From the NCBI GenBank assembly GCA_038087875.1, contig CM075990.1, positions 5,706,001 to 5,770,000 of the forward strand: 64,000 nt of DNA, in the 5' to 3' direction. Of the stretch, positions 3,045-49,949 are shown piece after piece. This DNA is from Malacoraja senta. Taxonomy: Eukaryota. Under the pieces are notes generated by a model. It ran no database searches. It saw only the letters and a list, made by a program, of their open reading frames with translations, and was not told the DNA's origin. Every line of letters starts with the position of its first letter. Position 1 is the stretch's first letter. The position numbers were made by a program, and so were the translations under genes.

Positions 3045-3270
3045 AAACAAAGAACTGCAGATGCTGGTTTATACCAAAGTTAGACACAAAGTGCTGGAGT
3101 AACTCAGTGGGACAGACAGCATCTCTGGGGGTAAAGAATTGGTGACATTTGGGCCAGAGCCCTTCTTCAGACCTCTGACGTCTGAAGAAGGGCCCCAACC
3201 CGAAACATTGCTTATTTTATTTTTTCCAGAGATGCTGCCTGACCTGCTGAGTTGCTCCAGCACTATGTGG
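3045..3270. mobile_element. Palindromic Penelope-derived short repeat (two inverted arms)
   Basis: Left arm ..CTGGAGTAACTCAG..CCCTTCTTCAGAC is the reverse complement of right arm GTCTGAAGAAGGG..CTGAGTTGCTCCAG. The same motif lies next to GIY-YIG coding sequence at 17975-19460. Confidence 0.75.
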
Positions 3271-4007: not shown

Positions 4008-5572
4008 TCCCCAGGGCCAGATAGGCTGCATCCCAGAGTACTTAAGGAAGTACCCCCAGAAATAGTGGATGCATTAGTGATAATTTTTCAAAACTCTTTA
4101 GATTCTGGAGTAGTTCCTGAGGATTGGAGGGTAGCTAATGTAACCCCACTTTTTAAAAAGGGAGAGAGAAAACGGGGAATTACAGACCAGTTAGTCTAAC
4201 GTCGGTAGTGGAGAAACTGCTAGAATCAGTTATTAAAGATTTGATAGCAGCACATTTGGAAAGTGGTGAAATCATTGGACAAAGTCAGCATGGATTTATG
4301 AAAGGTAAATCATGTCTGACGAATCTTATAGAATTTTTCGAGGATGTAACTAGTCGAGTGGATAAGGGAGAACCAGTGGATGTGTTATATCTGGACTTTC
4401 AGAAGGCTTTCGACAAGGTCCCACATAAGAGATTAGTATACAAACTTAAAGCACACGGTATTGGGGGTTCAGTATTGATGTGGATAGAGAACTGGCTGGC
4501 AAACAGGAAGCAAAGAGTAGGAGTAAACGAGTCCTTTTCACAATGGCAGGCAGTGACTAGTGGGGTACCGCAAGGCTCAGTGCTGGGACCCCAGCTATTT
4601 ACAATTTATATTAATGATCTGGATGAGGGAATTGAAGGCAACATCTCCAAGTTTGCGGATGACACTAAGCTGGGGGGCAGTGTTAGCTGTGAGGAGGATG
4701 CTCGGAGACTGCAAGGTGACTTGGATAGGCTGGGTGAGTGGGCAAATGTTTGGCAGATGCAGTATAATGTGGATAAATGTGAGGTTATCCACTTTGGTGG
4801 CAAAAACAGGAAAGCAGACTATTATCTAAATGGTGGCCGATTAGGAAAAGGGGAGATGCAGCGAGACCTGGGTGTCATGGTACACCAGTCATTGAAAGTA
4901 GGCATGCAGGTGCAGCAGGCAGTGAAGAAAGCGAATGGTATGTTAGCATTCATAGCAAAAGGATTTGATTATAGGAGCAGGGAGGTTCTAATGCAGTTGT
5001 ACAGAGTCTTGGTGAGACCGCACCTGGAATATTGCGTACAGTTTTGGTCTCCTAATCTGAGGAAAGACATTCTTGCCATGGAGGGAGTACAGAGAAGGTT
5101 CACCAGACTGATTCCTGGGATGTCAGGACTTTCATATGAAGAAAGACTGGATAGACTCGGTTTGTACTCGCTAGAATTTAGAAGATTGAGGGGGGATCTT
5201 ATAGAAACGTACAAAATTCTTAAGGGGTTGGACAGGCTAGATGCAGGAAGATTGTTCCCGATGTTGGGGAAGTCCAGAACAAGGGGTCACAGTTTAAGGA
5301 TAAGGGGGAAATATTTTAGGACCGAGATGAGGAAAACATTTTTCACACAGAGAGTGGTGAATCTCTGGAATTCTCTGCCACAGAAGGTAGTTGAGGCCAG
5401 TTCATTGGCTATATTTAAGAGGGAGTTAGATGTGGCCCTTGTGGCTAAAGGGATCAGGGGGTATGGAGAGAAAGCAGGTACAGGATACTGAGTTGGATGA
5501 TCAGCCATGATCACATCGAAGGGCCGAATGGCCTACTCCTGCACCTATTTTCTATGTTTCTATGTTTCTATG
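4008..5572 (+). mobile_element. CR1-clade LINE, 5'-truncated, young; RT and C-terminal part of ORF2 (ORF 4208-5491)
   Basis: RT motifs QHGF, YLDFQKAFDKVPH, GVPQGSVLGP and KFADD; CR1 C-terminal RPHLEYCVQFWSP and TRGH; (TTTCTATG)n tail. It interrupts a short repeat at CTGAGTTA|CTCCAGC. Confidence 0.95.
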
Positions 5573-5929: not shown

Positions 5930-6564
5930 AGTGCCTGTCCCACTTGGGCCGTCACTTACGCGACAGGCCGGTAGTGACGGTCGCGCGACTGTCCCGCGAG
6001 AGTCTCGCGCATCATCATGCGCCCGCACAGCCGTCTGGAGCACGTGACGTCATTTGAAGATGGACACAAAATGCTGGAGTAACTCAGCAGGACCGGCAGC
6101 ACCTCTGGAGAGAAGGAATGGATGATGTTCGTGTCGAGATTCTTCATCAGTCTGAAAGAAGGGTCTTGACCCGAAACGTCACCCATTGCTTCTCTCCAGA
6201 GATGCTGCCGGTCCCGCTGAGTTACACCTGCATTTTATGTCTATCTTCAATTTTCTTGGCCCCGCTCTGGGAGTAGGAGTGGGGGCGGATCCGGATCCGC
6301 AATGGCCGTGAGCCCCAGGCTGAGTTCGACGATCGTTTGCCTGCTTCTGTTGCTGTTGGAGGTGAGAGGTTGTGTCGCGCCAGGGTCTTGGGCCTGTCCC
6401 ACTTTGGCCGTCAGTTACTCGACAGGCCGGTGGCGCGTGATGATTTTGTGCAGGACGAAGTCCACACTCCTCCACACCACTCCATGCGCCCGTCCCGCGC
6501 GCAACCCACACGCTAGCAGGTCGTGTAAATGGCTCGCGAAAGACAGCCAAGTGGGACAGGCCCT
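5930..6564. mobile_element. PIF/Harbinger-like non-autonomous DNA transposon with nested insertion
   Basis: TIRs AGTGCCTGTCCCACTTGG / CCAAGTGGGACAGGCCCT, TAA on both sides. A nested Penelope-derived palindrome lies at ~6055-6250. Confidence 0.75.
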
Positions 6565-6854: not shown

Positions 6855-7325
6855 AGAACTGCAGATGCTAGATTAAATCGAAGATAGACACAAAATGCTG
6901 GAGTAATTCAGCGGGACAGGCAGCATCTCTGGAGAGAAGGAATGGGTGACGTTTCGGGTCAGGACCCTTCTTCAGACTGAGTCTCATTGTTTGCCTGGCN
7001 NNNNNNNNNNNNNNNNNNNNNNNNNNNNNNNNNNNNNNNNNNNNNNNNNNNNNNNNNNNNNNNNNNNNNNNNNNNNNNNNNNNNNNNNNNNNNNNNNNNN
7101 NNNNNNNNNNNNNNNNNNNNNNNNNNNNNNNNNNNNNNNNNNNNNNNNNNNNNNNNNNNNNNNNNNNNNNNNNNNNNNNNNNNNNNNNNNNNNNNNNNNA
7201 TGTTTCGAGTCGAGATCCTTCTTCTAACGTCTGAAGCAGGGCCTCGACCTGAAACGTCACCTATTCCTTTCCTCCCGAGATGCTGCCTGACCAGCTGAGT
7301 TACTCCAGATTTTTGTGTCTTCAAT
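6855..7325. mobile_element. Penelope-derived short repeats flanking the assembly gap
   Basis: Family motif on the minus strand at 6855-6980 and on the plus strand at 7228-7325. Confidence 0.65.
7000..7199. other. Assembly gap (200 N)
   Basis: Run of N. Confidence 1.
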
Positions 7326-11261: not shown

Positions 11262-11800
11262 ATAGACAATAGGTGCAGGTGTAGGCCATTCGGCCCTTCG
11301 AGCCAGCACCACCATTCAATGTGATCATGGCAGATCATCCCCAATCAGTACCGCGTTCTTGCCTTCTCCCCATATTCCCTGACTCCGCTATCTTTAAGAG
11401 CCCTATCTAGCTCTCTCTTGAAAGTATCCAGAGAACCAGCCTCCACCTCCCTCTGAGGCAGAGAATTCCACAGACTCACAACTCTCTGTGAGAAAAAGTG
11501 TTTCCTCGTCTCTGTTCTAAATGGCTTACCGATTATTCTTAAACTGTGGCCCCTGGTTCTGGACTCCCTCAACATCAGGAACATGTTTCCTGCCTCTAGC
11601 ATGTCCAAACCCTTAACAATCTTATATGTTTCAATAAGAACCCCTCTCATCCTTCTAAATTCCAGAGTGTACAAGCCCAGCCACACCATTCTCTCAGCAT
11701 ATGACAGTCCCGCAATCCCGGGAATTAACCTTGTAAACCTACGCTGCACTCCCTCAATAGCAAGAATGTCCTTCCTCAAATTAGAGGACCAAAACTGCAC
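11262..11800 (-). mobile_element. CR1 LINE 3' fragment
   Basis: ORF 11345-11800 matches the C-terminus of the 4208-5491 protein; (ATTGTCT)-type tail. Confidence 0.9.
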
Positions 11801-14800
11801 ATAACTGCAGATGCTGGTTTAAACCAAAGATAGACATAAAAAAGCTGGAGTAACTCAGCAGGACAGGTAGCATCTCTGGAGAGAAGGAATGGGTGAAGTT
11901 TTGGGTCAAGACCCTTCTTCAGACGTGCGGAGGAGAGTGATCGTCAATGCACATTCTCCGGAATTTACCTAGGCCCAATATGGGAGTAGTTAATGGGGAT
12001 AGTTTAATCTGGTGATGGTGATGTCACATGGGTAGTTAAGCTCAGGAAAGGTGAAGAACTTCCATGGTCCAACTTGAACCACTGGTTTCACACTGTGTAC
12101 AATCTATTCTCTCATCCAACAGCAATCTCTATTACTCAAGCACGTGACCAACATTAATTTTCTCCAATACACACAAACACATCACTACTGTGCAGTTCTC
12201 GTGCCCGTTTCCCAGCATATACTATTATCACAGATTCAATGATAGCAACCATAATTCCCAGAATCATTGCAAAGTATTCACTCTCACACTTCCTTTACTC
12301 TTGTAGAAGTGAATCAACATTGTCATCAGCTGGAGTAGTCTAGCACCCAACACCGTACTCAACAGACAGACTACATATCTATTAATAGAGTGGTGGTCTC
12401 AAAGTCTACAGCTGTGCCACTGCACTCCAGGTGATATTGCAGACTTGGTTCCAGCATGGTCTAAACAAACAATTCAATAGACATGGTGAGAGCCAACGAT
12501 CTTGACACTATTGGCACGTATAACCAAGTGAGGCCGGTCATCCCAGTCCCGCATAACCTCGGGACCATAGAATCATTTAAAATTAATCGAATTTACCTGG
12601 TTCCTTTGAGCATAAATGCATCGATGTAAACTACAAATAAATGATAATGAAAATGATCAGAAAAGGCTCATTTTGAAGTGGAAAATAAAAAAATTACTGG
12701 TGCTTATGCAGCAGTTTAAAGAGGTTTCATCATAGGCCTGGTATACATAGTCTCCATGTCATGTTCACAGATCAAAAAAATAATCCAGAAGTATCAATAA
12801 CATTCTCCAGGGGAATTATTTTTGAAGCACACTCATTGTCATAGGCAACATCTTGTTGAAATGAGTGAGAATGCAAATTATCTTAAAATATTTCACCAAA
12901 CGACTGATAAGTAACATTTTTAAATGGATAGATATCTAATGATATTCTGATCTGAAAAACTAGACTTTTTCACTAAATGTTAAGAATCTGTTTTTATTTC
13001 TGTACAATAATATTACGGCCCCAGGGAATATATATGCCCCTCAGTTTATACAAAATCAACTGTAGTGCTGTACAGCTGAGTAGATGTTTGTATTAATCTG
13101 CAGTGCCTTGTTTACTCCAAGTAATGTCTGTCTGTTGACAATCTTGTCAATTCATGGCATTTTGATTGCATTACTCTAAATGGTGCCTTGTTACCATAAA
13201 TCTCCTGTTCTATGTAGCCTTACTTTCTTTAACAACCAGGAAACAAACGTTCCACAAATAATAGCACTGTGTCATTGGATCTGGTGATTTGTAAAGACTG
13301 AAGGGTTTCTTTTTACATTTTCAGACCAATTCATGGGTCAATAACAATGCTTCACTTTAAATAAGGAAGGGCACGGTTCTTTATCACTTGAGGGGATGAG
13401 GTCATGGTAAGGAAGTGAAGGGCACAACAATCAATCAGTTAGTAATGGTTATGAAAGAAGCCTGTCGGTCGGTACACAGCGCAAGCAGAGTTATTCTCTC
13501 ATGGTTTACTAAAGCTTTCAATCTTCACAGAAGCAGAGTATTGTGTAGGAAAACAACTGCAGATGCTGGTTTACACCGAAGATAAGCACAAAATGCTGGA
13601 GTAACTCAGCAGGGCAGACAGCATCTCTGTATAGAAGGAATGGGTGACGTTTCGGGTCGAGACTCTTCTTCAGACTGAAGAAGTCTACTCCAGCATTTTG
13701 TGTCGATCTGTGCAGAGTAACTTTTCCACATTATTTTTAGTAATAATATCCCCCCCCCCCCCCCCCCCCTTAGATTTGAGATTGTTTTTCTCTCTGTATC
13801 TGAACCTTGCAAAACACTTCCTTTTAAGAATTCCTAAATAATATTTTATTTCTATACAATATCTCAAGGGTCAGATTCAAGGAGTAAACCACAGTGCATT
13901 TAGCATTCTGATGCATTTTATATGGATGGTTCTCATTATTTAAACTGATGTTAACTCTGAATTTATTCCATATTCACACTAGTGTAACACACATTACCAC
14001 AGATTATACCAGACAAATATGCATAATGAATTTTGAAGTTGTTGAACAATTAATAGTAATAATTGTATCAGGTACAAAAGAAACAAACAATAATGCAGAA
14101 ATCTGCACACTGGTATCTGAAATAATGGCAATTTAATTAAAATTGAGGTGCCTACTGCAGTTTATGTAATGACAGTCCAATGTACTCGGTCGCTGCCTGT
14201 AATATTATTGTACAGTACCTGTTAATGATGGAATTGGAATTCTCTTCAGGCCTGATCTTGGCCTTCCCATTAGACCAGTAGAAAACCGTCCAGTGAAAGC
14301 TAAATCTGTGCTACTGTTTAATTTTATGCAGCCGTCTTATTAAATTTGCTTAGGTTTGCACATTCAAACATACAATCATAAAGAAAGAATTCAGAATCAT
14401 CATCCTTTAACACATTCAATTCAGATTTTGTTCAACCACTCTTCAACCCACCACTGGTCTGCCTAATCATGCAGTCTACTGTGAGAGGTAAAAGATGAGA
14501 CAATTAGGTTTACAACTCCTTGAGGCAAGCAAACCACAAATCCTTTAAATCCTCATCTAAACTAAAACCTCTGACCTACTGAGTATTCACTAATTTCCTC
14601 AAGTCTGCATTATACATTCCTTCCCACCAACTTTAAAAACTTATCTCAACCACATCTTGGCTTGTCTAACCAAATTCATCTTTTCAAACATAAATGTTTC
14701 TTTTAGCATTATGATTCAACATTTCACTTTATTAAAGTGATTTTATTAAATATAAATCTCTTGGCTCTTTATAGATAAAAAATAAATTGATCAATGCAAC

Positions 14801-17974: not shown

Positions 17975-19460
17975 CAAGGTAGACAAAAATGCTGGAGAAA
18001 CTCAACGGGTGAGGCAGCATCAATGGAGTGAATGAAATAGGCAATGTTTCGGGTCGAGCCCCTTCTTCAGACTTATGTGAGGGTGGGGGGGGGGGGGCGG
18101 GAAGAAGAAAGGAAGAGGCAGAGACAGTGGGCTTAGGGAGAGCTGGTAAGGGGATGAGAATGCCGGGACTACCTGAAATTGGAGAAGTCAATGTTTATAC
18201 TGCTGGGGAGTAAGTGGCGGCGCCGTCGTACAGCAGCGGCTCGCCTGCAGTCTGTCTGTTTTTACTTTTTTTGTTGTTTTCTTTTGTCCTGTTTTAGTTA
18301 AATTTTAGTTTATTGGGTTGTGTATGTGTGGGGTTGTGGGGTGGGGGGGTGAAACATGACTTTTGTCTCTTCCTTCGGGGGAATGCGACTTTTTCTTGTC
18401 GTATCCCCCTTCTCTGCCTCCGTCTGCGCTGAGGCCAAAATGGCGGAGCTGCCGGCCTCCAACTCCAACTGCGAGCTGCCGGCCTCCAACTCCAACCGAC
18501 CACGATGCTCCGGAGGCAGAGCCAGGGCTTACCAGCGCGAGGCTGGCCAACTTCGGGGCTGCGGTGGCGTTCTGGCGGTGGCGACCGAGGACACTGGTGG
18601 CGACCTGAATCGGGAGGCTCGGCCGCGGGCCCAGTGGACGACATCGTCGGGAGCGCGCAGGTCACAGGTTGGTGACCTGTTTTTCTGGGGCTCCCGCAAC
18701 TACAGCTGCGTCCGCTGGACTGGAGGGCGGCAGCTTCGGCAGCTTCGACCACCCCGGGCCGCGGAGTTTGAGCCGGCCCGTCACGGAGCTCGGATTCAGC
18801 CGCGGGATTGACTTACCATCACCCGGCGGGGCCACAGCATCAGAAGCCTGGATCGCCTCAGCGCAGAGGGAGAACAAAGCGGGAAGAGACAGAGACTTTA
18901 AGACTTTTGCCTCCATCACAGTGAGGAGGTGCCTGGTGAACTCACTGTGGTGGATGTTAATTTGTGTTTATTGTGTGTTTTGTCATTTATTATTATATGT
19001 ATGACTGCAGGCAACGAAATTTCGTTCAGACCGAAAGGTCTGAATGACAAATAAAGGAATCTCTAATCTCTAATCTCTAAACTGCCCAAGCGAAATATGA
19101 GGTGCTGCTCCTCCAATTTACGGTGGGCCTCACTCTGGCCATGGAGGAGGCCCAGGACAGAAAGGTCGGATTCGGAATGGGAGGGGGAGTTGAAGTGCTG
19201 AGCCACCGGGAGATCAGGTTGGTTATTGCGAACCGAGCGGAGGTGTTGGGCGAAGCGATCGCCAAGCCTACGCTTGGTCTCACCGATGTAGAGTAGCTGA
19301 CACCTAGAGCAGCGGATGCAATAGATGAGGTTGGAGGAGGTCCTTGAATGGAGTCAAGGGGGGATGTAAAGCGACAAGTGTAGCATTTCCTGTGGTTGCA
19401 AGGGAAAGTGCCAGGAGAGGGGGTGGTTTGGGTGGGAAGGGACGAATTGGCCAGGAGGGG
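17975..19460 (-). mobile_element. Penelope-like element fragment (GIY-YIG endonuclease plus 3' terminal repeat), split by an insertion
   Basis: Minus strand of ~19081-19340 translates as SSNLIYCIRCSRCQLLYIGETKRRLGDRFAQHLRSV..PVAQHFNSPSHS..LEEQHLIFRLG, a Penelope-type GIY-YIG domain. It continues at 18213 into the short-repeat motif. Confidence 0.85.
18214..19080 (+). mobile_element. GC-rich non-autonomous retroelement nested in the Penelope fragment
   Basis: Sharp boundaries that interrupt the GIY-YIG sequence; ends GACAAATAAA..(AATCTCT)3; related to 1643-2527. Confidence 0.7.
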
Positions 19461-20322
19461 GTGGTTTTATTCATTTTATTAATTAACTTAAATTAAATTC
19501 CCCAGCTGCCCTAGTAGGATGGAACACATACACGTCTGAATCATTCCAATAGCAATAATTCAAATGGTTGATTATTCAACCACATACAGTGTAGGATTCC
19601 TTGCTTTTTTTTCTGATTGCATTAATAATATGGGATTATTGTGATTTACATTTATTAGCACTACGAAGGAATTTCATTTTTTGAGATGGATATTTCCTTT
19701 GTCAGTGAGACAATTTCCTTTTGTACAATCAATTAATTGTTTTCATATCCCGTTCTCCTGTTACACCCTACAAATAATCGCTTGTGGTTATAAACATTTT
19801 GAAATTATTTCTCATTGGCATTATCAACAAAGAATACAAAAGAAACTGCAAATGCCAGAAATTATGAAATAAAACCAGAAAAGGCTGGAAGTGGTTCAGG
19901 CCTGATCTGTGGAGGGACAGAGCTAACATTTTAGATGAATGACCTTTTGTTAGAACAGAATCATTAGCATTATCGAGATCTTTATCTCATCTATCTAAAA
20001 CATTAATCCTGTTTCTCCCTCCACAGATGCTGCCAATCTGCTGTATATTTTAAAGCATGTTTAACTTTAACATCATTAAAGTGTCCAAGTATTATTCAGT
20101 TTCGTGAAACATTTTTAAATGGAGGTACATGAGCCAGTTTATTACGTAAAAGATAACCTATGTTTATTCGTTTTGATTGATATACTTAAACTATTTCAAA
20201 ATATGGTATGCTTTAAATTTATATTTAAATGCATTTAAAAGTACAACTTGGTTTTATTGATGCAATTATTTGGCATCTTTTGGAAAAATGTTGTAGGAAA
20301 GCATAAATCAGATGAAGTAGAT

Positions 20323-20910
20323 GTTAAACAATTGATACCAAATTCAAATCAGTAGTAAACTAGCAAAACCTGCCAATTATTGTTTAAACAAAACTCTTAA
20401 CAAGACATCTCCACGATTGATCAAATTCCTATTGTCTAAATATTTCATAGCTCAATACAGGTGGATATCTTTGTCCATTTCAGAAAGATGGACAAGATGC
20501 TTGAGAGTGCAATTCTAAAAATCTCTCCACACATATTACACTAGCATTACTTTTAACTTTCCATTACCTCCAGGCAAGAAAAAAATACTTATCTAATATG
20601 TAAAATAATTACTTTGCTATTATATAGAACAGGCCACCTGACACTGATGTCCAAGATGCTAAATGGTATTGTTGTTCCCAATTAAGATAGTTGTGATATT
20701 AATTGTCTTCTACAATCAGTGACCGAATGCTTATTGTTTTTAAAACCTTAATACTGATATCCATTACCTCAAATTTAATTCAAGGCAAAAATGGTGTTAA
20801 ATTGCAAAAACAATTATCATGGGAAGCAAGAATACTTTCAGTATATTAATTATAGGTCTCAGGTGATACTGACTCCAATGAACCTTTTAAGGGAACAGTA
20901 CATTCATTAG
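20323..20910. repeat. Left arm of a long, old inverted repeat
   Basis: Colinear reverse-complement match to 26317-26922, e.g. CATTTCAGAAAGATGGACAAGATGCTTGAGA vs TCTCAAGCATCTTGTCCATCTTTCTGAAATG. Confidence 0.9.
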
Positions 20911-21142
20911 CAAATTCAGTCCAATATATCAAGCATGTTAACATTACTTCAATAACCAGTAAAGTAACTGTGTAAGATATGCTCAGAAATTTCAATCCTG
21001 ACTTTAGACAACATGTTACAAAATGAAACAAAGTGCAAAAGGATTATGAAGGAGTTCCTGGCATGCAGGGTGTTTTAACTGCTCCAATCCCATTATCTGC
21101 ACAGCATATGATGAGCACACATCAAAGTACTGTGGGAAACAT

Positions 21143-21149
<7 letters not shown>
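20752..21149. repeat. 398-bp direct repeat, copy 1 (candidate giant L1 target-site duplication)
   Basis: No differences seen versus 25823-26220 (offset 5071). The identical 61-aa ORFs at 20846 and 25917 in the ORF track agree. Confidence 0.95.
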
Positions 21150-21209
<60 letters not shown>

Positions 21210-24200
21210 GTACGGTAGATTACAGTAATGTACAACACGTATATATTAATACATTTTTTGTACCGCTTCACTTTTTTAAACTTTAAGAAAGAAAAAGAAA
21301 GAAGTAAGAAAAGTGAAGAAAGTGCACAAAGGTTGTGAAGTGCAAAAGAGTGTTGGGAAAAGAAAGCCCCTTAGAAAAGAAGTTAGAGAAGGAAGTAAAG
21401 TTAGAAAATAGACCCTAGAAAAAAAAAGAGAAAGAAAGAAGGAACAATCGCTCTATTATAATTCTTATACCATACTTCATAGAGAAGGAACTACCAACCA
21501 AGTCTGTTTTTATTTTACCTCCCATTACCAGGTCCAGATACCTTTTATTTATTTATTTGTTTTTCTAAATTACTATTGCACCTCATGCTTGTAATAGGTC
21601 CAAAAACGTAGACCACGTCTTTTGAAATTGATCTACTTTGCCTACTAGGAGGAATCTCATCTCTTCCAGATGTAATGTTTCCAACATATTTGATGTCCAC
21701 ATTTTTATTGTTGGTGTGGGCGCATTTTTCCAGAATTTAAGTATAAGCTTTTTTCCCATTATTAGCCCATAATTGAGTAAATTCTTCTGATACACGTTTA
21801 ATTCAGGAATACCTTCCGATATTCCAAAAATAATCCATTCTGGTTTTGGTACCAGTTTTATTTTGATTAATTTTGAAAAAATATCAAATATTTCAAACCA
21901 GAATTTTTGGATTTTTGTACAAAAAACAAAAGAATGTGCTATGGTAGCTTCTTGACATATACATTTATCACAGATTGGTGAGACGTTAGGAAAGATTTTA
22001 TTTAGTTTGGTTTTTGAATAATATAATCTATGTAATGTTTTAAATTGGATAAGCGTATGTCGTACGTTGATCGAGCATTTATGCACCTGTAATAAATGAT
22101 TATCCCAACTCTCTTTTGAAATTTTTATACCTAGATCTTGTTCCCAATCTCTTCTAATTCCATCTGTTGTGGGTATTTCTATATTTAAGATGATATTATA
22201 TAAGTATGATATTAAATTAACTGTTTCCGCCTTTGTCTTCATTGCTTCATCTAGTAAGTCGGAAGGCATATTATAATAATCTTTTGTGTGTGTTTTCAAA
22301 TAGTCACAGATTTGTAGATATTTAAAATATTGATTATTTTTCAAATTATATTTCAGTTGTAGTTGTTGGAATGATAGTAATTTTTCTAATTCATACAGAT
22401 CTTCGAGCGTTTTAATTCCCATTCTTTCCCATTGTATAAATGCTTTATCTATGATTGAAGGTTTAAACGATGGGTTATTGACTATTGGTATTAAGAGAGA
22501 TAGGTTTCTTAATTTTAGATTCTGTTTTATTTGCTTCCATGTTCTAATAGTGCTATATATAATTGGATTTTTATTATAATTTTTATTATTCAAATTTATT
22601 GGAGAGAGAATAATCGCTCCTATATTATTCGGGGAGCAATCCCCTTTTTCCATTATAATCCAGTCCACCTGCTGGGCAGAATTGTCCAGCAGGTGAATCA
22701 TATTTTTAATATTTACTGCCCAGTTATAATACATAAAGTTAGGGAGCGCTAGACCCCCCAACTCTTTTCGTTTGTTAAGGTGTGTTCTTTGTATTCTGTG
22801 GGATTTGTAATCCCATATAAAATTTGTAATGTCTGAGTCCAGTTTTTTGAAAAACTTTTTTGGGAGATATATAGGTATTGATTGAAATAGGTAAAGGATT
22901 TGTGGCAAGAAAATCATTTTTATAGCATTTATCCTACCTATTAAGGACATCGGAAGTGTTTTCCAAAATTTAATCAGATTATTTAATTTCTTAAGTAGGG
23001 GATTATAATTAGCTTTAAACATATCATGGTAATTTCTAGTAATCTCAATTCCTAAATATTTGAATTTTTCCATAGCTATTTTAAAAGGGAATTTCCTGAG
23101 ATGTGTTGAGTCTTTTGGTTTAATCGACATAATTTCACTTTTGTTCCAATTTATTCTATATCCTGAAAAGGATCCAAAGTCCTCAATTAAGTTTAATATA
23201 TTTGGTATACTAATTTGTGGTTTTGTGATGTACAGTAGTACATCATCAGCATATAGGGATAGTTTGTTGTTTGAATATTTTGTGTTATAACCGTGAATAT
23301 TCGAGTGTGTTCTTATTTTTTCAGCAAGGGGTTCAATTACCAAAGCAAATAACAGCGGTGATAGTGAACATCCTTGTCTGTTGCCCCTAGATAATTCGAA
23401 TTTTGAAGATAATATATTATTAGTTAGTATTCTAGCCGTAGGTTTGTTATATAGTAGTTTTATCCATGCAATAAAGTTTTCTCCCAATTGGAATTTTTGC
23501 AATACTTTGATCATATAGTCCCATTCTACTTGATCAAACGCTTTTTCTGCGTCCAGTGAGATGATAGCTAACTCTTGGTCATCAGATTTATGTGAATGCA
23601 TTATGTTAAGCAAACGTCTCAAATTATTAAATGAGTGTCTCTTAGGTATAAATCCTGTTTGATCCTCATGTATTAGTCTACTAACATACTTGCTTAATCT
23701 GTTGGCTAATGTTTTTGCTATTATTTTCTGATCCGTATTTAACAAAGCAATAGCTCTATATGATCCTGGTTCTTCTATATTTTTATCTTTTTTAAGTATT
23801 AATATGATCGTTGATTCCGCTAGTGTTTCAGGTAGGTTTTGCTCTTTATAAGCATATGTATACATTTTTTGTAATCGTGGAGTAACTATATCATAAAAAG
23901 ATTTATAAAATTCATTACTGAATCCGTCTGGTCCTGGTGTTTTTCCATTTTTTAGTGTTTTTATTGTGTCTTCTATCTCCTTAGAAGTAATTTGTGCTCC
24001 CAGTTCCTCTTGTTCCCTGCGTTCTAATTGTGGTAGATTACAATTATCTAAAAATTCTGAGATTTTATTATTGTCTATTGACGTTTTAGATGTGTATAGA
24101 TTCTGGTAAAATTGAGCAAATCTTTTATTAATATCCTTGGGTAGTGTTAATACTTCCCCTCTATCTGATTTAATCTTTAATATTGCATTCTCTTTTTCCC

Positions 24201-25822
24201 GTTTTTTAAGTTGTCGTGCTAGAAGTTTGTGGGGTTTGTCCCCGAATTCGAAGTGTTCTTGTTTTGTGATTTGAAATAATGTTATAACTTTCTCTGACAG
24301 TAATTTATTTAACTGAAATTTCAGTAGTAGTATTTTATTATGTTTATCCATAGTTGGGTCTTTAGCATTATCTATATCTAACTGTTTTATTTGATCTTCT
24401 AAGTGTCTTTGTTCATTCTTATTCTTTTTATTTTGATAAGCTTGAAATGAAATAATGACTCCTCTTATAAATGCTTTGAAGGATTCCCATAATAACGTGG
24501 GGGATATCTCTGGTGTATCATTTAACTCAAAAAATAGATCCATCTGTTTTTTTAGGTAGATACTCCCTTGAGGGTCTTTTAAAATTTGTGAGTTAAACCT
24601 CCAGAACGGTTTATTCATAGACATTCCTTCTAGTTTTAGAACAAAAGTTAACGGAGAATGATCTGAGATCGCATTAATATGATATTTAGGATTCAGAGAT
24701 TGCGAAATTAATTTTGTATCCACAAGAAAATAGTCTATCCGTGAATATGTTTTATGCACCATTGAATAAAACGAGTAATCCCTTCCCGTTGGGTTTGCAA
24801 TCCTCCATACATCTGTTATATTTGTGTTTTCCATATATGTGTGTAAGAGTTCACTGGTTTTAGATTTCGTCTGACCTTTTTGTTTTTGCATCGATTTATC
24901 TAAATAAGGATCTAAAACACAATTAAAATCTCCTCCGATTATAACATTTTGATAATTAGATTCTGCAATTATATTCAGAATTTTATTAAAAAATTGAGGG
25001 TTATCAAAGTTGGGCGCATATATGTTTACCAGCGTAATTGGCATATTATTGATCTCCCCTGCTACTATAAGATATCTCCCTTCCTTATCTAAAATAGTGT
25101 TCTTTGATTTAAATGGAATTCCTTTACGAATAATAATTGCAGTACCTCTAGATTTGGAGGTAAATGAAGAGTGAAATGTTTGGCCTATCCAGTTCGCCCT
25201 CAGTCTTGTCTGATCTTGCTGTTTAAGATGTGTTTCCTGTAGAAACGCAATGTCCGTGTTGTATGATTTCAACTGAGCTAGTATCTTGCCCCTTTTAATA
25301 GGTTCATTAATCCCCCTTATATTCCAACTACATAATGTGATTCCTCCTATTTTCTTTTGATTGTCGTCATGCATTTTTACCAGTTTTAATGACCTTAATT
25401 ATTGTGGTGCGTTCATACCTCCGGACTCTGGTTATTTTGGGAGTATTTCTATTATAGACTTCCTTGGTAGTTCTCCTGCGCGATTGTCCTTGAAGAAAAA
25501 ACACACAGATGTGACATATTGTGATTAAAAAAAATATATATAAATCAAATAAATTTACGGTGTCTAAAATTTCAACACCGTAGTGAGTGGCCCACTCGTC
25601 TGTGGGGTACGACATCCATAACGCTTCCGGCGTAGTTGGTATAAAGTTAGCCCCGCTGTATTTATTACCCAAAATCTATGGGGTCATTACCGTTTCCAAT
25701 TCAGTTCTATTTCACCCAGTTACAATTTATATATGTGTCAAATGTATTCGATTCCATATCCTACTCACTCTTTATCTCTTAACTATTTTAAAATGAATTT
25801 AGTATTGTTAAAGTGAGCGGTT
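21146..25822 (-). mobile_element. L1-clade LINE, 5'-truncated (no ORF1), with 60-nt poly(A) tail
   Basis: Poly-T at 21146-21205, 3' UTR at 21206-21582, intact ORF2, and ~450 nt of upstream spacer-like sequence. Confidence 0.95.
21583..25374 (-). CDS. L1 ORF2 protein (APE endonuclease, reverse transcriptase, C-terminal Cys/His region), 1263 aa, uninterrupted
   Basis: SWNIRG, LQETH, GGDFN, SRIDY and SDH (APE); PGPDGF, LDAEKAFD, GNRQGCSLSP and YADD (RT); CDKC..H...C at the C-terminus. Confidence 0.95.
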   Translation of the reverse strand: MHDDNQKKIGGITLCSWNIRGINEPIKRGKILAQLKSYNTDIAFLQETHLKQQDQTRLRANWIGQTFHSSFTSKSRGTAIIIRKGIPFKSKNTILDKEGRYLIVAGEINNMPITLVNIYAPNFDNPQFFNKILNIIAESNYQNVIIGGDFNCVLDPYLDKSMQKQKGQTKSKTSELLHTYMENTNITDVWRIANPTGRDYSFYSMVHKTYSRIDYFLVDTKLISQSLNPKYHINAISDHSPLTFVLKLEGMSMNKPFWRFNSQILKDPQGSIYLKKQMDLFFELNDTPEISPTLLWESFKAFIRGVIISFQAYQNKKNKNEQRHLEDQIKQLDIDNAKDPTMDKHNKILLLKFQLNKLLSEKVITLFQITKQEHFEFGDKPHKLLARQLKKREKENAILKIKSDRGEVLTLPKDINKRFAQFYQNLYTSKTSIDNNKISEFLDNCNLPQLERREQEELGAQITSKEIEDTIKTLKNGKTPGPDGFSNEFYKSFYDIVTPRLQKMYTYAYKEQNLPETLAESTIILILKKDKNIEEPGSYRAIALLNTDQKIIAKTLANRLSKYVSRLIHEDQTGFIPKRHSFNNLRRLLNIMHSHKSDDQELAIISLDAEKAFDQVEWDYMIKVLQKFQLGENFIAWIKLLYNKPTARILTNNILSSKFELSRGNRQGCSLSPLLFALVIEPLAEKIRTHSNIHGYNTKYSNNKLSLYADDVLLYITKPQISIPNILNLIEDFGSFSGYRINWNKSEIMSIKPKDSTHLRKFPFKIAMEKFKYLGIEITRNYHDMFKANYNPLLKKLNNLIKFWKTLPMSLIGRINAIKMIFLPQILYLFQSIPIYLPKKFFKKLDSDITNFIWDYKSHRIQRTHLNKRKELGGLALPNFMYYNWAVNIKNMIHLLDNSAQQVDWIIMEKGDCSPNNIGAIILSPINLNNKNYNKNPIIYSTIRTWKQIKQNLKLRNLSLLIPIVNNPSFKPSIIDKAFIQWERMGIKTLEDLYELEKLLSFQQLQLKYNLKNNQYFKYLQICDYLKTHTKDYYNMPSDLLDEAMKTKAETVNLISYLYNIILNIEIPTTDGIRRDWEQDLGIKISKESWDNHLLQVHKCSINVRHTLIQFKTLHRLYYSKTKLNKIFPNVSPICDKCICQEATIAHSFVFCTKIQKFWFEIFDIFSKLIKIKLVPKPEWIIFGISEGIPELNVYQKNLLNYGLIMGKKLILKFWKNAPTPTIKMWTSNMLETLHLEEMRFLLVGKVDQFQKTWSTFLDLLQA

Positions 25823-26220
25823 TACTGATATCCATTACCTCAAATTTAATTCAAGGCAAAAATGGTGTTAAATTGCAAAAACAATTATCATGGGAAGCAA
25901 GAATACTTTCAGTATATTAATTATAGGTCTCAGGTGATACTGACTCCAATGAACCTTTTAAGGGAACAGTACATTCATTAGCAAATTCAGTCCAATATAT
26001 CAAGCATGTTAACATTACTTCAATAACCAGTAAAGTAACTGTGTAAGATATGCTCAGAAATTTCAATCCTGACTTTAGACAACATGTTACAAAATGAAAC
26101 AAAGTGCAAAAGGATTATGAAGGAGTTCCTGGCATGCAGGGTGTTTTAACTGCTCCAATCCCATTATCTGCACAGCATATGATGAGCACACATCAAAGTA
26201 CTGTGGGAAACATCCATTTT
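25823..26220. repeat. 398-bp direct repeat, copy 2
   Basis: Identical by eye to 20752-21149; abuts the L1 5' truncation point. Confidence 0.95.
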
Positions 26221-26316
26221 CTGCATCTCCAGTAGCCCTGATAATTTGTATTGGCTTGTTTGATCTACCGAATGGCATATAAAAGCGACATCTGCCAAGT
26301 TCAGTCACAATCATTA

Positions 26317-26922
26317 CTAATGAATGTACTAAATTTACTTAAAGGGTTCATTGGAATCAGTATCATCTGAGACCTATAATTAATATAATGAAACTATTCT
26401 TGCTTCCCTCTGTTTTTCTTTTGTAATTTTGCGCCATTTTTTTTACAATTAATTACATTTGAAGTAATGGATCCCAGTATTAACAGTTTTTAAACTAAGC
26501 ATTTGGTCACTCTGGTTGTAGAATAAAATTAATATCATAATTATCTTAATTGGGAACATCAATACCATTTGGCTTTTTGGACACTAGTGTCAGGTGGCCT
26601 GTTTTACATTATAGCAATTTAACTCTTTCACATATTAGATAGGTATTTTTCTCTTCTACAATTATCTGGTGGTAACAGAAAGTTAAAGGTAATGCTGCTG
26701 CAATATGTGTGGAGAGATTTTAAGAGTAGCATTCTCAAGCATCTTGTCCATCTTTCTGAAATGGTCAAGGTTATCCTTTTGTAGTTATCCCTTTGTAGTA
26801 TCTAGACCAAAAGGCATTTGATAAGTCACAGAGCTGTCTTGTTAAGAGTTGTGTTTAAACTAGAATTTGCAATAGTCATTTTCTGCCAGTTTACTATTTG
26901 AATTTGGCAACAATTGGTAAAC
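26317..26922. repeat. Right arm of the long, old inverted repeat
   Basis: Reverse complement of 20323-20910, with scattered substitutions and indels. Confidence 0.9.
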
Positions 26923-27790
26923 AGTTAGAGGCACTGTCTTAGTTATTTTCGGTAAGAAAATGTGACTACTGGTTACATTTTTCTATGACAGCTGGTGGTA
27001 ATTTATAAACAAGCAAGGCATTGAAAATCAGTTTTGAAATAATAATATTATATATTTGATCCAAACTAATGGTACAAAAAAAGTATCTTGTTGCCAGAAA
27101 AACAAATCTGGCCTGTATGGAGCTTTTCTTAGCTGGTATGATCTCTGAATACAAAACATACACAAATTGGCTTCCTCCATCAGAGATCCAATAGAAAAAT
27201 GAGTACATAACTGTGTTGAAGGATATTTTGAGGTTGTTGTTGCATAACATAATGCATTAGATTTAGATCTACTTTACATATCACTATTGGATAATTGCCG
27301 TGAAAGTGCTTCATACTGACGCTCGTGCTAAAAGTAGTAAAAATGTAGTCTTTAGCATTAGTATGCTTTATCCCAATCATCAAAATAATTATCACAATCT
27401 ATGTTCCACAGTAACAATTGAATAAAGCCAGAGGAATTCTCTTGGCAACTTGACGAATATTTACCCCACATCAATGATAAAAACAAAATTGCTGTTGGCA
27501 AATTAGCAACAATGTCTCATATAGTCCCTTTCATATTTCAAACCATTTTCTGAATTGTAATGTGGGTAATGACAACAAATTTGTACACAGCAAGTTCTCA
27601 TAATCAATGTTTTCCAAGGGATAATGATGTTGACTGAGAGATAAATATTGATTTGGACATCAGGGATAACTCATACTCTTTAAAATAATGCCATGGATTT
27701 TCAATATTCACCTTATATGCACAATGACATATCTGAGTTTTCAGAGACATATTTATTACACTGGACCTGAAGCTTAGATTTTCATGCCTA

Positions 27791-28065
27791 ATGTGCCTGT
27801 CCCATCTAGGCTATTTTTTTAGGCGACTAGGCTGTCGCCACATGGTTGCCAGGGCGTTGCCTGTATGGTCGTGAGTAGTCTCCTCAGTCGCCAAAAGAAT
27901 CATAGCATCTTTCTGATCGCCGCTGGATTTTCAACATGTTGAAACATTTTCGAGGACAGTCGGCAACAGTAGGTTTGACGCCAATGAGTGTAGCTTAACT
28001 TTTCCTGACTTAAGTGCTGTCATAGGTTGTTGCCAGGTGACATAGGTTGTCGCCGGTGCTAACTT
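27791..28065. mobile_element. Degenerate Harbinger-like MITE fragment (one end visible)
   Basis: Begins TAA-TGTGCCTGTCCCA, like the TIRs at 5930 and 17393; internal GTCG/TAGG repeats resemble 17393-17610. Confidence 0.5.
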
Positions 28066-30569
28066 TGTTTTATTTTGTTGTTAAAGTGATGATTGTCCCA
28101 AACGTAAATTTAACGATTGAAGCTTTCGATTAAATGTGGTAACCTACTTCATATGATAAAGATTTTGAACATGATCAGGACAAAGTGTGCAGCAGAGTCA
28201 TTAATTTGCTGCTGGAACCAAGACTGAAACATCTGCACCCCCATTCAGTCAGATGTGTTCAGTGCATTCATCCCACTTGCTGTTACCTAATATCCAGTCC
28301 ATCGGAGAAGTCGGACTTTATCCAATTGATTTACTTAACATAATATCAAGAAATAGCTGAGAGCTCAGCATACAGCAAAGGCTAAGGGACCACACACCAT
28401 CTTGGCAATGGAAGGCTTGTGATCTATCACCAAAGACGTGATCTATCACCAGTCAGGCCTTTATCCAAGTTGCTCCAGTACTGTTACAATACTGACATTT
28501 ACCCAACTATATTGAAAACTGTCTAAGTACTTCCTGTTCATTACAAATCCAATCCAGCTCATTACCACCCAATCTACTCGGTCACAATCAAAATTAAGGA
28601 AGATATTTTCATAGTGCCATCAACTGGCGCAATCTCTCCAATAACATATCAATAGCAGTTTATGTCTTACCAGTACCTCTCTTCTCAAGACTTCATTACA
28701 GTTTGCTCCAAAGATGAATAAAAAAGCTAAATTACAGCGCTGATGTGAAAATGACTACCCATGATATCAATGCAGCAAGTATGGTGCCAAGAAACCCTGG
28801 TGAAACCTGTTAATGGATCTAGGATAATATACTCCAAAGGAGTACACCCTTTTAGAGTATTGTATCATCAAACACCATTGCTTGCCTGTTCCCCTTCAGG
28901 TGATGCCTGTTCATCATCCGATTTGGAAATATATTGCACTTCCTTCACTGTCATAGGGTCTGGATTCCGCATGAAATATTTGGGGAATCCTTCATCAAAA
29001 GACTCCAGTATTCCCTAAAGGTGGTTCATCTCAACCTGCGTAGAAATAAGCAATGAATACTGGCCTCTAATTCCAATATCTGCTTATTTCACTCTTTTTC
29101 AATTTATTCTTAAATATTAACACTGTCTACTTCAATCGCTAAACCTGACAGAATTTCAGAACCTGGTGCAAGATTTCTCTCTCTCTACTTCTAAATCTCT
29201 TGCGTCTATTTGATTCCCTCTCCAATGGACACCCATCTAGATTTCTCAACCGTTTAAAACAGTATGCATTTGTCTACTTTGTCTCAATTAATTTTATTAT
29301 GTCAGCTGCAATCTTTGTTTTTAAAAAGAATAAATCTACTTTTTATTTATTATATTTTTTTAAACCAGGCAGTAATGAATGTGTGTCAGACCCTTAATCA
29401 ATTACCTCAATCCTTTCAGAAGTATAGACTCACTGGAATCTCAAGTTATATAGGCTCATTATTAATTTGTCACATTAAATCCTATGATAAAATTGGGAAT
29501 TCCATTTGCCTTTAAGTCTTCAATGTTCTGTTAATCCCAACATATAATTCCACTGTCCTTCAACATGGAACCTTATGCTGCTTAACACTTTTGTCAATGA
29601 CTAGTATTTATATCAGTATTTAGGCACACACACATTCTACCACCACCATGATTAAGAATTATACACCAGGAGTGCATAATTCTGCCCATTACTGAATTTC
29701 CATTTAAACAAAAACTGCTGGAAAAACAAGAGTACCTTTATGAACCCATCGTGCATGTCCCATGTGATTTTCCATCATTGATGGCAAGTTACATTAATTT
29801 TGAAAGTCAGAATTTTTTTATGGCACTTAGTTGGATTCTACACAGACAGTTGTTGCAGGCAAAGGACAATGCTAGGAATGCAAATTATGGAAAATTATTA
29901 TGGCAGTGGACCTGAACTGATTGGTATTGGGCTTTAAGCCAATGCTGGTGCTTCTTACTGAGATTCAGTAACTAGTTCAGTAAGGTTGGCTGATGTGCAA
30001 AAGATGTCAGATTGTTTAACTTGTCTGCCTCATGACAATATTCCAAAGATAAAGTATGAGCAGAAAAGCAGAGATAATACATGAATTAACTATTTTTGAA
30101 TTTATATATCAATATATAAATTTTATTTTTTTATCACAATAAAAAATCTGCAACATAGATTTTGTTCTGAGAGCTGGAATAAGTTATAGTGTCCATAATT
30201 CTAGGCACGAGCTTACCTTGCAAGTATGTACAGAAATAGAAACAGTTTCCAATGGATGATAGGAGGCAATCCAATCACTATATTTCTGCTCATTCAGTGC
30301 CTGGAGTCTGAATAATGCTGACAGATGGATATTATCAGGTTACCTGAAACCCTATCCCCATGACTCTCAATCCTCAACGCTAGATATGGTGCCTGAAACT
30401 AAAATATAAAATTGTTCAGTGACATTCCAATAAGCTTGGCAAAAATGACCTGGTGACCACATTGCTATAATTGGCTTGGTCTGAAGTGACAATGATACTC
30501 TTTAAATAGATCTGCCTAGAAATCCATCTGCATTGTTTTTCCAGTGTTAACAGTATTAGCAGTTCTAAA

Positions 30570-30808: not shown

Positions 30809-33329
30809 TTTAATGGTATTGTAAAATACCTCTTGAATGTTTTTTTAACTCAAAACAAAATTAGATTAGCGCCAGTTCCAAAAACAATGCTATGTGCCCC
30901 ATCGTGTAACAATACTACTTAGAAACAGAGAGTGTTTGAGTTAAAGTTTCCCACACTAGTAACACTTTCCTTCAAATCTCTGATTTCCAGAAGTCACCCA
31001 TAGAATCACACCAATAGACAAAGATTTTTAACTTTTGTTGTTCAGTTTTATTTAATTCTCTAATGCAGCAGAGAGCAAATGTGGCATCCCTCAAGAGAGA
31101 CTTTCGGCAAGAATCCTGGCAACATTACTAAGAATGTGAATTTGACTTCGACACCAAATAAAAACAGAAAATGCTGGATACGCTCAACAAGTCAGGCCAC
31201 ATTTGACTGAAGAGAAATAACATTTTGAGCTCTAGAATCCCACATTGGAAAATAAACACTATGAAACAGAACACTTAAAACATTAACTCAGTTTATTTTC
31301 CCACATATGCAACTAATCTGATGAGTATTTCCAGCATTTAGTGTTTTTATTTTAGGTTTCCACCAAATGCAAGTTTTTCCCCAAATGCAGACACCCATCC
31401 GACTAGATATTTGTGGTTCTCAATGGCCTCTGTCCTTTATACTTTCTTGATAATGGATTCCAATGGAGAGTTCACTGTAACTTTGTTGACCCACTTGCCT
31501 GTGGGTAGGATCTGAATGTTTCTGTGAACAGGCAAACTGGGTTCTAAAAGTATGGGGGTGGGGGGGGGGGGATAACAATTTCCTGAGGTGAGGATGTTCC
31601 AATTATGCAATTCTTTTCAATGATTCCTAATTTGGCATGACGGTAAAATGCATCACTCATATTGTGCACCATAAATCGATCACATCCAATTTATAGGTTA
31701 AATTTTACTTTGGTCCTCCTTTGCTTCTTTCTAAAGTTTACCCAATCATCTGACCTCATGGTAATCTTTGCAAGATTGTGTGCCTTTTCATTCAATTTGA
31801 TGCCATTTCTTAGATTGCCAAATATTTGTTTTTAACAGAACATATTCTTGTAAAATAATCACTATATATGTCCTTAAACATAAGGTGTTGCTTAACTGCT
31901 GCCTTTCTGATATATTTGTTGCAATCTACTCTAGCCAGCTTTTTCTTCATTGCTAATACAGATGCATGGTTCTTATTTTGAAATTGAATTTAAAATCCAT
32001 TGGAGTAGGCCCTCTGATAACTGGATAAGCTCATAGTTGGGAGTGCACAATTTCTTTCAGCTATCCCCAGAGTCTAAGGAAATATGGCCACCAGCTGTTC
32101 AGAAGATCTGCACCTTGCAAGCTTTTCTGCGCAAGAGAATGGCTCACCCCTGAATGGCCTTGATAGCAGGTGAAACCCTGTCACTGGAGTCACTAATATA
32201 AATGGCCAGAAGAGGCCAGGCAGCTTCTGGGAATGATTTACATGGGAGAACAATTAAAAAAAAACTCTCTTGCACTCTAACTGTTAAATGAACCATTATA
32301 ATATTCATACAATTACTATTTCCATCTATTATTCTGAACAAAATGTTCTTTGTTCATCTTTAAACAATCAAATGCAGTTTCTGCCCTGTGCAATTTCTAT
32401 TTTTGAGCACAAAATTACTTCTAAAATTTACATTTCACTAAAACACTGAGAGAACAGCTGATCCTAAGCATTTGCCAGTAGCTCGGAGATTCCAGAGCCA
32501 AGGACAGCAGCCAGATTACAGTGTAGGGGAACATTAAGACCATTTCCTCCTGCTGCTCCAGCTTAGCCTTCTTGGCAAGTAACTCTTGAGCTCATACCAA
32601 TCTTTTCTTACATCTTGTCCAGGAGGCAATGGTGCAAGGATTATTGTCTTCCTTGCTACTGGCCAGATGGCATGTATTTGTCTGCCACCATTCACCAGTA
32701 CAATTATACAAGGTTGGAGTTGCTCGTGAAATGCTGTCAGGATTGCTGCTGGGGTCTCAGTTGGTCACAATCTATATTCATGACTTGGATAAGGAGACCA
32801 AGAGTGATATATCTAAAGATAGACACAAGATGCTGGAGTAACTCAGTGCGTCACGCAGCATCTCTGGAGAAAAGGAATAGGTGACATTTTGGGTCGATAC
32901 CCTTCTTCAGACATCCTTTTCTCCAAGGATGCTGCCTGACCTGCTGAATTACTCCAGCTTCTGTGCCTATTGCTGGTTTAAACCAGCATCTCAGTTCCTA
33001 CTCATTTTCAATCTCTCTCCGTTTAGAAAATGGTTAAGCAATGTTTTGAGATGGTACCCTTCAGGCAGGGGGGGGGGGATTTAACATTTTATTAATTTTT
33101 AATATTTTTTAACAGGCAGGGTGAATCCATATGCTGCTACCATAAGCAGTGAAAGTATTAATAAGCTTGGAAAACATGATTTACATTGAAACATTCATAT
33201 TATATTCCTTGTTTTCTATGTACCTTTTTGCATTGCTGTGATAATAAAAAAAAATTTTTTTGATAGTCTCAAAGGTTCAATTACTTTAATGCCTCTCTGG
33301 TTGATTAAGGAGGGTAAAAAAAAAAGAAT

Positions 33330-34924: not shown

Positions 34925-35074
34925 GTTGCCGCGAAAGCAGGTGTTTATGAGATTCTGAATCGCTTGGGATTCCTTGAATTGGACGAGCCTGAAAACATGC
35001 CACTTTCAAGACTATGCTACCGTTGGTTGCAACAATGCACAAATACACTTCCATTCCGAGGAGAGTTTATTTAG
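34925..35074 (+). CDS. PALD1: Paladin (PALD1), last coding exon
   Basis: Acceptor ..ctatttttctag| followed by VAAKAGVYEILNRLGFLELDEPENMPLSRLCYRWLQQCTNTLPFRGEFI*, matching my recollection of the vertebrate paladin C-terminus (..KAGIYEILNELGFPELE..PFSRLRYRWQ..). Synteny with ADAMTS14 supports it. Upstream exons were not found in the window. Confidence 0.9.
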   Translation, partial: VAAKAGVYEILNRLGFLELDEPENMPLSRLCYRWLQQCTNTLPFRGEFI

Positions 35075-49930: not shown

Positions 49931-49949
49931 TTCACATGCGCATATTATA

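Follow-up and report, generated by a model that had tools for sequence, protein, structure and literature searches.

An old single-locus inverted repeat upstream of the last PALD1 coding exon of Malacoraja senta, and a recent L1 insertion with a 398-bp target-site duplication

The inverted repeat described here, in a window of 64,000 nucleotides from Malacoraja senta, is best read as an old and neutral local inverted duplication, which was later entered by a very recent L1 element. The palindrome and the L1 insertion would be two unrelated events, and we give this whole account, an ancient local duplication followed by an unrelated L1 event, a probability of about 0.62. The left arm (20322-20913, plus strand, 592 bp, 31% GC) and the right arm (26314-26923, minus strand, 610 bp) pair with each other both in self-BLAST (E 7e-142) and in a local alignment of 618 columns, with 491 identities, 92 mismatches and 16 gaps, or 78.8% identity with gaps counted. 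The mismatches are 44 transitions and 48 transversions, the K2P distance is 0.18, and the alignment score is 586, where the highest of 200 shuffles matched in composition was 36. The repeat is thus as real as the sequence-only reading had taken it to be, with ends 1-3 bp away from those first given. When the L1 and one copy of its target-site duplication are removed, the remaining empty allele is a palindrome of 1531 bp with a spacer of 329 bp (25985-26313, plus strand), close to the 1.5 kb and 335 bp estimated earlier.

The outer ends of the palindrome are sharp and coincide across the full 600 bp or so, and beyond them there is no similarity above chance (score 15.5, reached by 18% of 300 shuffles). 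The spacer is not more self-complementary than its shuffles, the arms have no internal subrepeats, and no patches of gene conversion were found between them, the longest identical run being 32 (p 0.27) and the window variance giving p 0.09. A coding origin of the arms was considered and dropped, there was no Pfam match in 12 of 12 frames and the indels between the arms are mostly not multiples of three. A sensitive BLAST with both arms and the spacer as queries found no third arm copy in the window, which agrees with the earlier view that the arms resemble none of its other repeats.

To look beyond the window, public contigs from four runs (X1, X2, X3 and X6, of which 88, 100, 86 and 100% were examined) were aligned to it at 80% likeness; these are contigs and not reads, and X1 and X2 are two samples of the same species as the window. 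Only the two arms were recovered, in this species and in two relatives, and dispersed copies of the arms were not found at this likeness in the contigs of any of the four runs. The partner arm itself was recovered in all four, which implies that siblings of that age were detectable. The summed contig depth on the spacer and right arm was 23-29 in X1, where the unique flank gave 23-27, and 1.3-4.9, 46-119 and 28-84 in X2, X3 and X6, while the depth reached 4e4-2e5 on the L1 and 5.6e5 on the repeat at 27848-27974 in X1. The palindrome is a single locus and not a repeat family, and this depth does not support the earlier suggestion of a foldback transposon family.

Both relatives, B and D, carry both arms, and in B one contig of 995 nt runs from arm through spacer to arm without the L1. 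The stretch 25823-26538 differs by 3.9% in B, where the contigs that lie mostly in the flank differ by 3.5%, and the stretch 25899-26556 differs by 3.1% in D, with 4.1% in the mostly flanking contigs. Right arm, spacer and the flank on the right side thus differ from the window alike in the relatives, by about 3-5%. Six further organisms (C and E-I) share 0.20-0.24 of the sequence words, which was not counted as evidence.

The last coding exon of PALD1 (paladin) lies downstream of the palindrome at 34925-35074 on the plus strand, it is 94% identical to a Pristis paladin-like protein and covers residues 818-866 of 866; the paladin match itself, on the same strand, spans 34925-35071. The palindrome is therefore probably inside the last PALD1 intron, as had been proposed. 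With 6 of 29 proteins as queries no other PALD1 exon was found in the window below E 0.29, and for this reason the intron itself is something we infer. The next gene, presumably ADAMTS14 by synteny, is represented by an ADAMTS-type propeptide exon at 53522-53889 on the plus strand (PF01562, E 1.2e-18).

It appears that the duplication predates the split of this species from B and D. A template switch during replication or repair may have folded back across the 329-nt loop and then returned to its original template, so adding an inverted copy of some 600 bp of unique intronic sequence, and the arms would since have decayed neutrally to about 18% divergence. The arrangement of arm, spacer and arm at one locus, and its presence in the relatives, are observed and speak for such a local duplication; no outgroup with just one arm was encountered, and the switch is the likely mechanism rather than a visible one. 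Fold-back inverted duplications and short-range switches have the same order of arm, unduplicated spacer and inverted arm in unique sequence. The catalogue of short-range template switches in apes goes no further than 128 nt (PMC7954356), the fold-back duplications known in humans measure Mb and have spacers of at least 766 bp (PMC3907307), and for this reason the size of the palindrome fits neither class well. The 0.6-kb arms fall between switches of at most 128 nt and Mb-sized events with a terminal deletion, and unlike the fold-back duplications the event here is interstitial, and so old that any junction microhomology is no longer readable.

It is possible, though unlikely, that the palindrome is instead the last surviving trace of a non-autonomous DNA transposon of low copy number, foldback-like or Ginger-like, with 600-bp terminal inverted repeats (TIRs). 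Foldback-type elements and MITEs have long TIRs around a short non-coding centre, and the palindrome shares this design and has sharp ends, but it lacks a family in the genome, internal subrepeats in its arms and a clean TSD. The outer ends read TGT...ACA, and a 4-bp TAGA precedes the left end and recurs 2 bases beyond the right end. Such a repeat near both ends has a 3% probability by chance, under a rule set after the repeat had been seen and with ends that are 18% decayed, so that together with the termini it faintly suggests a transposon and speaks against local duplication. Ginger1 and Ginger2 have TGTNR at both ends, TIRs of 40-270 bp and a TSD of 4-5 bp (PMC2836005). The TGT...ACA ends and the possible 4-bp flanking repeat are common to both, and the left end, TGTTA, fits the pattern; the right end, TGTTT, does not, the repeat is offset by 2 bases, and the arms of about 600 bp are twice the longest TIRs reported there. 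Neither a Gypsy-like integrase nor any other transposase remnant was found by Pfam in 12 of 12 frames, which is not required of a non-autonomous copy, and no third copy appeared at 80% likeness in any of the four runs, leaving a single locus. It is hardly credible that each arm arose as a separate insertion of some common interspersed repeat; inverted repeat pairs are plentiful in the window, but the depth is that of a single locus, both ends coincide over 600 bp and the window holds no other copy. The objection that two unrelated insertions with unrelated boundaries had met by chance is thereby largely ruled out.

The L1 lies on the minus strand, antisense to PALD1. A pure poly(A) tail of 60 nt (21146-21205, a T run on the plus strand, its first four T from the target) is followed by a 3' UTR of 377 nt (21206-21582), an intact ORF2 (21583-25374, 1263 aa counted from its first Met) that encodes both an APE endonuclease and a reverse transcriptase (PF03372 and PF00078), and a 5'-truncated upstream part (25375-25822). 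ORF2 matches human LINE-1 ORF2p (8sxt) colinearly over residues 12-1257 (E 1.6e-186), scoring 625 bits as compared to at most 82 to R2. Together with a poly(A) at a T-rich nick and a flanking direct repeat, this places the element in the L1 clade; ORF1 and 5' UTR are absent from the truncated copy (no Pfam hit in 3 of 3 frames of 25375-25822), and in the contigs other L1 copies continue upstream of its 5' end. The L1 is very recent, since its duplicate is identical at 398 of 398 positions, its tail is pure and its ORF2 is intact.

The direct duplication is exactly 398 bp long and 100% identical between copy 1 (20752-21149) and copy 2 (25823-26220), both on the plus strand. Copy 1 consists of the inner 162 bp of the left arm and 236 bp of the spacer, and it ends with CCATTTT at the site of the first nick. 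Copy 2 recreates the inner left arm (25823-25984) opposite the right arm, and a local hairpin with the original spacer as its loop does survive the insertion, as had been noted. The statement that the spacer captured the L1 is correct only as regards the 3' junction, since the one at the 5' end is 162 bp inside the left arm. At the 5' junction the sequence TACTGA (25823-25828, not assigned to a strand) is common to the target and other L1 copies: L1 contigs (one in X1, two in X2) fit to 25828 and then diverge, which suggests a microhomology of about 6 nt, as judged from loose contig ends at 80% likeness.

It is likely that the L1 integrated by target-primed reverse transcription, its endonuclease nicking the plus strand after CCATTTT in the spacer (21149) and reverse transcription stopping just upstream of ORF2. 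Through its microhomology of some 6 nt the cDNA would then have been joined to the minus strand at an end located at 20752, 398 bp from the first nick and presumably left by an unrelated one, which would explain why 398 bp were duplicated. Events of this kind are rare but have been described. Up to 10% of L1 events in HeLa cells have TSDs of more than 100 bp and the median in NER-deficient cells is 1495 bp (PMC5223499), and long TSDs are mostly found on 5'-truncated L1s (PMC2912911). The insertion resembles those in culture in its 5' truncation, poly(A), T-rich first nick, duplication above 100 bp and distant second end, but it is a natural germline copy in a cartilaginous fish, inside a pre-existing palindrome, and its nick context is TTTT/CT and not TTTT/AA. 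A literature search, which mostly left aside subscription papers and supplements with possible tables of germline long TSDs, gave no paper on this locus and none in the elasmobranch search.

One contig each in X1 and X2 runs from the left arm through a single duplicate copy into the spacer, which is the path of an empty site, and the insertion is therefore probably polymorphic, with the reservation that these are assembled contigs and that graph cleaning could mimic an empty allele. The depth was 23.3, as compared to 29-32 expected if two duplicate copies had been collapsed. We regard it as improbable that the 398 bp are not one TSD at all, but an artefact of assembly or haplotype merging, or the product of recombination between two L1s inserted 398 bp from each other. 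The perfect identity of the copies and the empty path in the contigs of both samples would fit this, as would the lack of a contig bridging the L1 5' junction among the contigs listed. However, a T-rich nick signature is present at the 3' junction and microhomology with the L1 family at the 5' one, the sole N gap in the window is at 7000-7199, and at 27050, 27285 and 28432 X1 and X2 have letters other than those of the window, consistent with a different haplotype.

The position of the L1 invites the question of whether the palindrome set the length of the duplication, with the end of the second strand at the base of the stem (20752). After a nick in the loop and resection, the minus strand would fold arm on arm and come away from the strand that carries the cDNA, and the stem base would be cut by a structure-specific nuclease. 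The first nick is indeed in the loop and the second junction in the stem, and since such spacers cover only 0.6-1.5% of the empty-site window the landing is a mildly unlikely coincidence. In yeast, widely spaced inverted repeats of 75-86% identity fold back in single-stranded DNA and need Rad1-Rad10 (PMC10164571), and the source of the second nick in L1 integration is given as unknown (PMC5223499). Against this, it is a single event picked for its striking look, a mismatched hairpin of -102 kcal/mol (inner 162 nt) must displace a perfect duplex of -193, nothing marks 20752 in the arm alignment, where pairing continues on either side, and long TSDs in culture arise without a stated need for a palindrome. 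We find this quite improbable, and the palindrome would not have caused the insertion. The cruciform that had been proposed to attract nicks is implausible at this spacer and divergence; in yeast double-stranded DNA a 100-bp spacer lowers recombination induced by inverted repeats 300-fold, and 75-86% identity lowers rearrangements 58- to 1087-fold (PMC10164571).

Very improbable is a selected RNA duplex in the PALD1 pre-mRNA, acting as ADAR substrate, small-RNA precursor or splicing modulator. Folding predicts that a long duplex is possible on the transcribed strand, and the palindrome is on the PALD1 side of the last exon: the empty allele folds at -693 kcal/mol, with helices of up to 36 bp when G-U is included, and the surviving hairpin (25823-26479), in which 25823-25984 pairs with 26314-26479 at 80%, folds at -234 kcal/mol (z -14; none of 20 shuffles as stable). 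However, divergence in the relatives is at background level and there is no wobble bias (24 G-U-compatible mismatches on the plus strand, 20 on the minus, p 0.65), which argues against selection on such a duplex. Among 14 listed differences between A and B in the paired inner part, the pair is kept in A in 8, in B in 4 and in neither in 2, and no compensatory double change is among the A-versus-B differences listed (21 of 28 rows for one contig, with 261 rows in all outside the list). These differences are part of a table from two relatives, and within them neither covariation nor conservation of pairing was seen. Rfam gave no match in the window at gathering score, and three weak ones far below it (E 0.18-0.33), none on an arm. 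Window positions 1-34924 hold 42 inverted pairs of at least 80 nt, one of them with as large a duplex energy (-636 as compared to -628), though 5.7 kb apart, and incidental editing would not confer function. The palindrome can probably fold in the pre-mRNA like many repeat pairs in the intron, without a selected role.

Taken alone, the palindrome is intronic DNA of an ordinary, decayed kind. If it did shape the insertion, the locus would show, in a natural germline insertion, that the secondary structure of the local DNA can determine how the second strand is cleaved, an unexplained step of target-primed reverse transcription, with a polymorphic pair of filled and empty alleles at hand for its study. 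One case cannot show an enrichment of long TSDs at palindromes, but such an enrichment would offer a way to study how the second L1 nick is made. The human and chimpanzee genomic survey collected only TSDs of 5-30 bp (PMC2912911), and at least one survey has thereby, through its 30-bp limit, excluded the class of long TSDs. The L1 described here shows that a young family with intact ORF2 exists in a cartilaginous fish, and its very long TSD, of a class described mostly from human cells in culture, is a clean case from nature.

Self-BLAST of the window gave a single long inverted match and a single exact direct match in the repeat region. The inverted match pairs the two arms, 20322-20913 and 26314-26923 (618 columns, 78.8%, E 7e-142); aligned to each other they agree at 491 positions and mismatch at 92, with 16 gaps (K2P 0.18), with a score of 586 as compared to at most 36 across 200 shuffles. 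Similarity beyond the outer arm ends was no greater than in shuffles, the ends being sharp, and nothing above shuffles was seen in the 329-bp spacer. This confirms the inverted repeat of the sequence-only reading, with ends moved 1-3 bp. The direct match, 20752-21149 = 25823-26220, is the 398-bp target-site duplication (TSD) flanking a minus-strand LINE-1 (L1). As that reading also held, the duplication rebuilds the inner left arm and its hairpin: the second copy restores 162 bp, and 25823-26479 folds as RNA at -234 kcal/mol (z -14).

The last paladin coding exon was found at 34925-35071 (94% to Pristis, top matches in rays and sharks), and an ADAMTS-type propeptide exon further on, at 53522-53889. 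Because the window holds no other PALD1 exon, the repeat most likely lies, as proposed earlier, inside the last PALD1 intron, of >35 kb; the exon was seen directly, and the intron is inferred from the exon search. An assembly gap of 200 N (7000-7199) lies upstream of the repeat. A CpG-island-like stretch at 1700-2450 (GC 0.61, CpG o/e 0.95), within the presumed intron, contains a GACCGCA tandem at 2098-2140, and a second GC-rich stretch at 18300-19300 (GC 0.57, CpG o/e 0.82) contains a 24-nt direct repeat at 18446-18496. The segment 19079-19279 is similar to 60182-60382, and 60389-60696 is a nearly perfect tandem array of 25.7 copies of ATATATAGATAT, mostly self-complementary.

The L1 is antisense to PALD1 and has a pure poly(A) tail of 60 nt, a 377-nt 3' UTR and an intact ORF2 of 1263 aa that carries endonuclease and reverse-transcriptase domains and is colinear with human ORF2p (E 1.6e-186); upstream of ORF2 are 448 nt, in which no ORF1 domain was detected. 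Its 3' junction falls just after CCATTTT, 236 nt inside the spacer, and its 5' junction 162 nt within the left arm. Contigs of other L1 copies match up to 25828 and then diverge (one in X1 and two in X2, contig sets from the same species as the window), and the 5' junction therefore has a microhomology of about 6 nt. Reverse-transcriptase-like ORF fragments at 4157-5491, 11345-11818 and 57080-57901, in both orientations, belong to a second LINE family, which we take to be CR1-like.

A 2057-nt contig in X1 and an 869-nt contig in X2 run from the left arm through one copy of the 398-bp stretch into the spacer, without the L1. Their depths are 23.3 and 2.2, as compared to 29-32 and 3.0 expected for a collapsed duplicate. 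No contig among those listed bridges the L1 5' junction, and graph cleaning could have removed branches at the L1 junctions. Probably an empty allele exists in the species and the L1 is polymorphic. Contigs of both sets differ in letter from the window at 27050, 27285, 27688 and 28432; either they represent a different haplotype or the window carries consensus errors there.

The arms had been suggested to be an ancient foldback transposon or a local inverted duplication. Public runs queried with 25823-27600 shared words in 23 of 24 rows, with shares of 0.96 and 0.84 in the two rows of this species and 0.20-0.26 in 21 rows of eight other organisms. Four runs, all contigs, were aligned to 24800-28600 at 80% likeness: X1, X2, X3 (relative B) and X6 (relative D). 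Summed depth over spacer and right arm was 23-29, 1.3-4.9, 46-119 and 28-84, respectively, which is single-locus level, as against 4e4-2e5 for the L1; it doubles where left-arm contigs align onto the right arm. Since the partner arm aligned in all four runs, arm copies of like age were detectable, and a dispersed family is not supported in these contigs. Extra depth over 26604-26625 in X3 and X6, absent from X1, may stem from overlapping contigs, from alleles or from a short third fragment. Nearby, the element at 27720-28100 has a very high copy number in each of the four runs (summed depth 5e4 to 8e5; 5.6e5 in X1 for the repeat at 27848-27974). Its joints switch strand, and it is probably a non-autonomous transposon of palindromic form.

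Both arms are present in B, where one contig (X3 record 17) reads arm-spacer-arm without the L1, and in D (X6 records 24 and 25). Divergence from the window is 3.9% (B) and 3.1% (D) for the arm and spacer contigs, and 3.5% and 4.1% for mostly flanking contigs; with equal rates and no conversion, the arm-arm divergence would be about 4-5 times the species divergence. The inner left arm, 20752-20913 (= 25823-25984), differs from B at at least 12 of 162 sites, the rest of the same contig (spacer and right arm) at 16 of 554 (Fisher p 0.018, post hoc); the two arms may evolve at different rates. G-U-compatible mismatches are unclustered and number 24 on the PALD1 strand versus 20 on the other (p 0.65). 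Among 14 listed A-versus-B differences in the paired inner part (A being the window's species), the pair is kept in A in 8, in B in 4 and in neither in 2, and no compensatory double change occurs among those listed (21 of 28, on the record 17 contig). Of the proposed long dsRNA, then, the predicted ability to fold stands, with no sign of selection for pairing. The intron contains 42 inverted pairs of at least 80 nt; the arm pair has the top BLAST score, and one other has a similar duplex energy. Many local pairs in the window come from a palindromic MITE-like family of about 200 bp (3077-3283, 6054-6250, 32816-32997, 55904-56091 and many half copies); another, 49169-49412 / 49944-50181 (244 bp, 93%, spacer 531 bp), consists of LINE fragments.

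A nick-attracting cruciform, also proposed, is implausible because of the 329-bp spacer and the arm identity of 79-84%. In yeast dsDNA, as reported in PMC10164571, lengthening the spacer from 12 to 100 bp lowers inverted-repeat instability 300-fold, and identities of 86% and 75% lower it 58-fold and 1087-fold. Diverged, spaced repeats still fold back in long yeast ssDNA (PMC10164571), and a hairpin of the palindrome in ssDNA is possible.

The reading we favour, at a probability of about 0.62, combines an old inverted duplication, confined to one locus and apparently neutral, with an L1 event that has no link to it. The palindrome shares its layout with the fold-back inverted duplications of PMC3907307 and the template switches of PMC7954356, but lies outside the size ranges described there, between the two. 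That the palindrome is a lone relic transposon is unlikely: its outer ends read TGT...ACA and TAGA is repeated at both ends with an offset of 2 (3% by chance, by a rule fixed afterwards), but it lacks the combination described for Ginger elements (TGTNR at both ends, TIRs of 40-270 bp; PMC2836005), and neither Pfam (12 of 12 frames) nor Rfam (either arm) gave a match. Less probable still is a link between fold-back of the palindrome and the L1 with its duplication. The overlap is mildly unlikely by chance, since long local inverted-repeat spacers make up 0.6-1.5% of the empty-site window, but it was singled out for that unlikelihood; in a fold-back model, a -102 kcal/mol heteroduplex would have to displace a -193 duplex, and 20752 is unmarked in the arm pairing.

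L1 TSDs in genomes are usually 5-30 bp, and those >100 bp make up at most 10% in HeLa but predominate in cells deficient in NER, for which an unrelated nick at a distance was proposed; the source of the second nick is described as unknown (PMC5223499). A primate survey gathered only TSDs of 5-30 bp and called for work on longer ones (PMC2912911). The L1 that interrupts the old inverted duplication is very young, and its 398-bp target duplication is rare.
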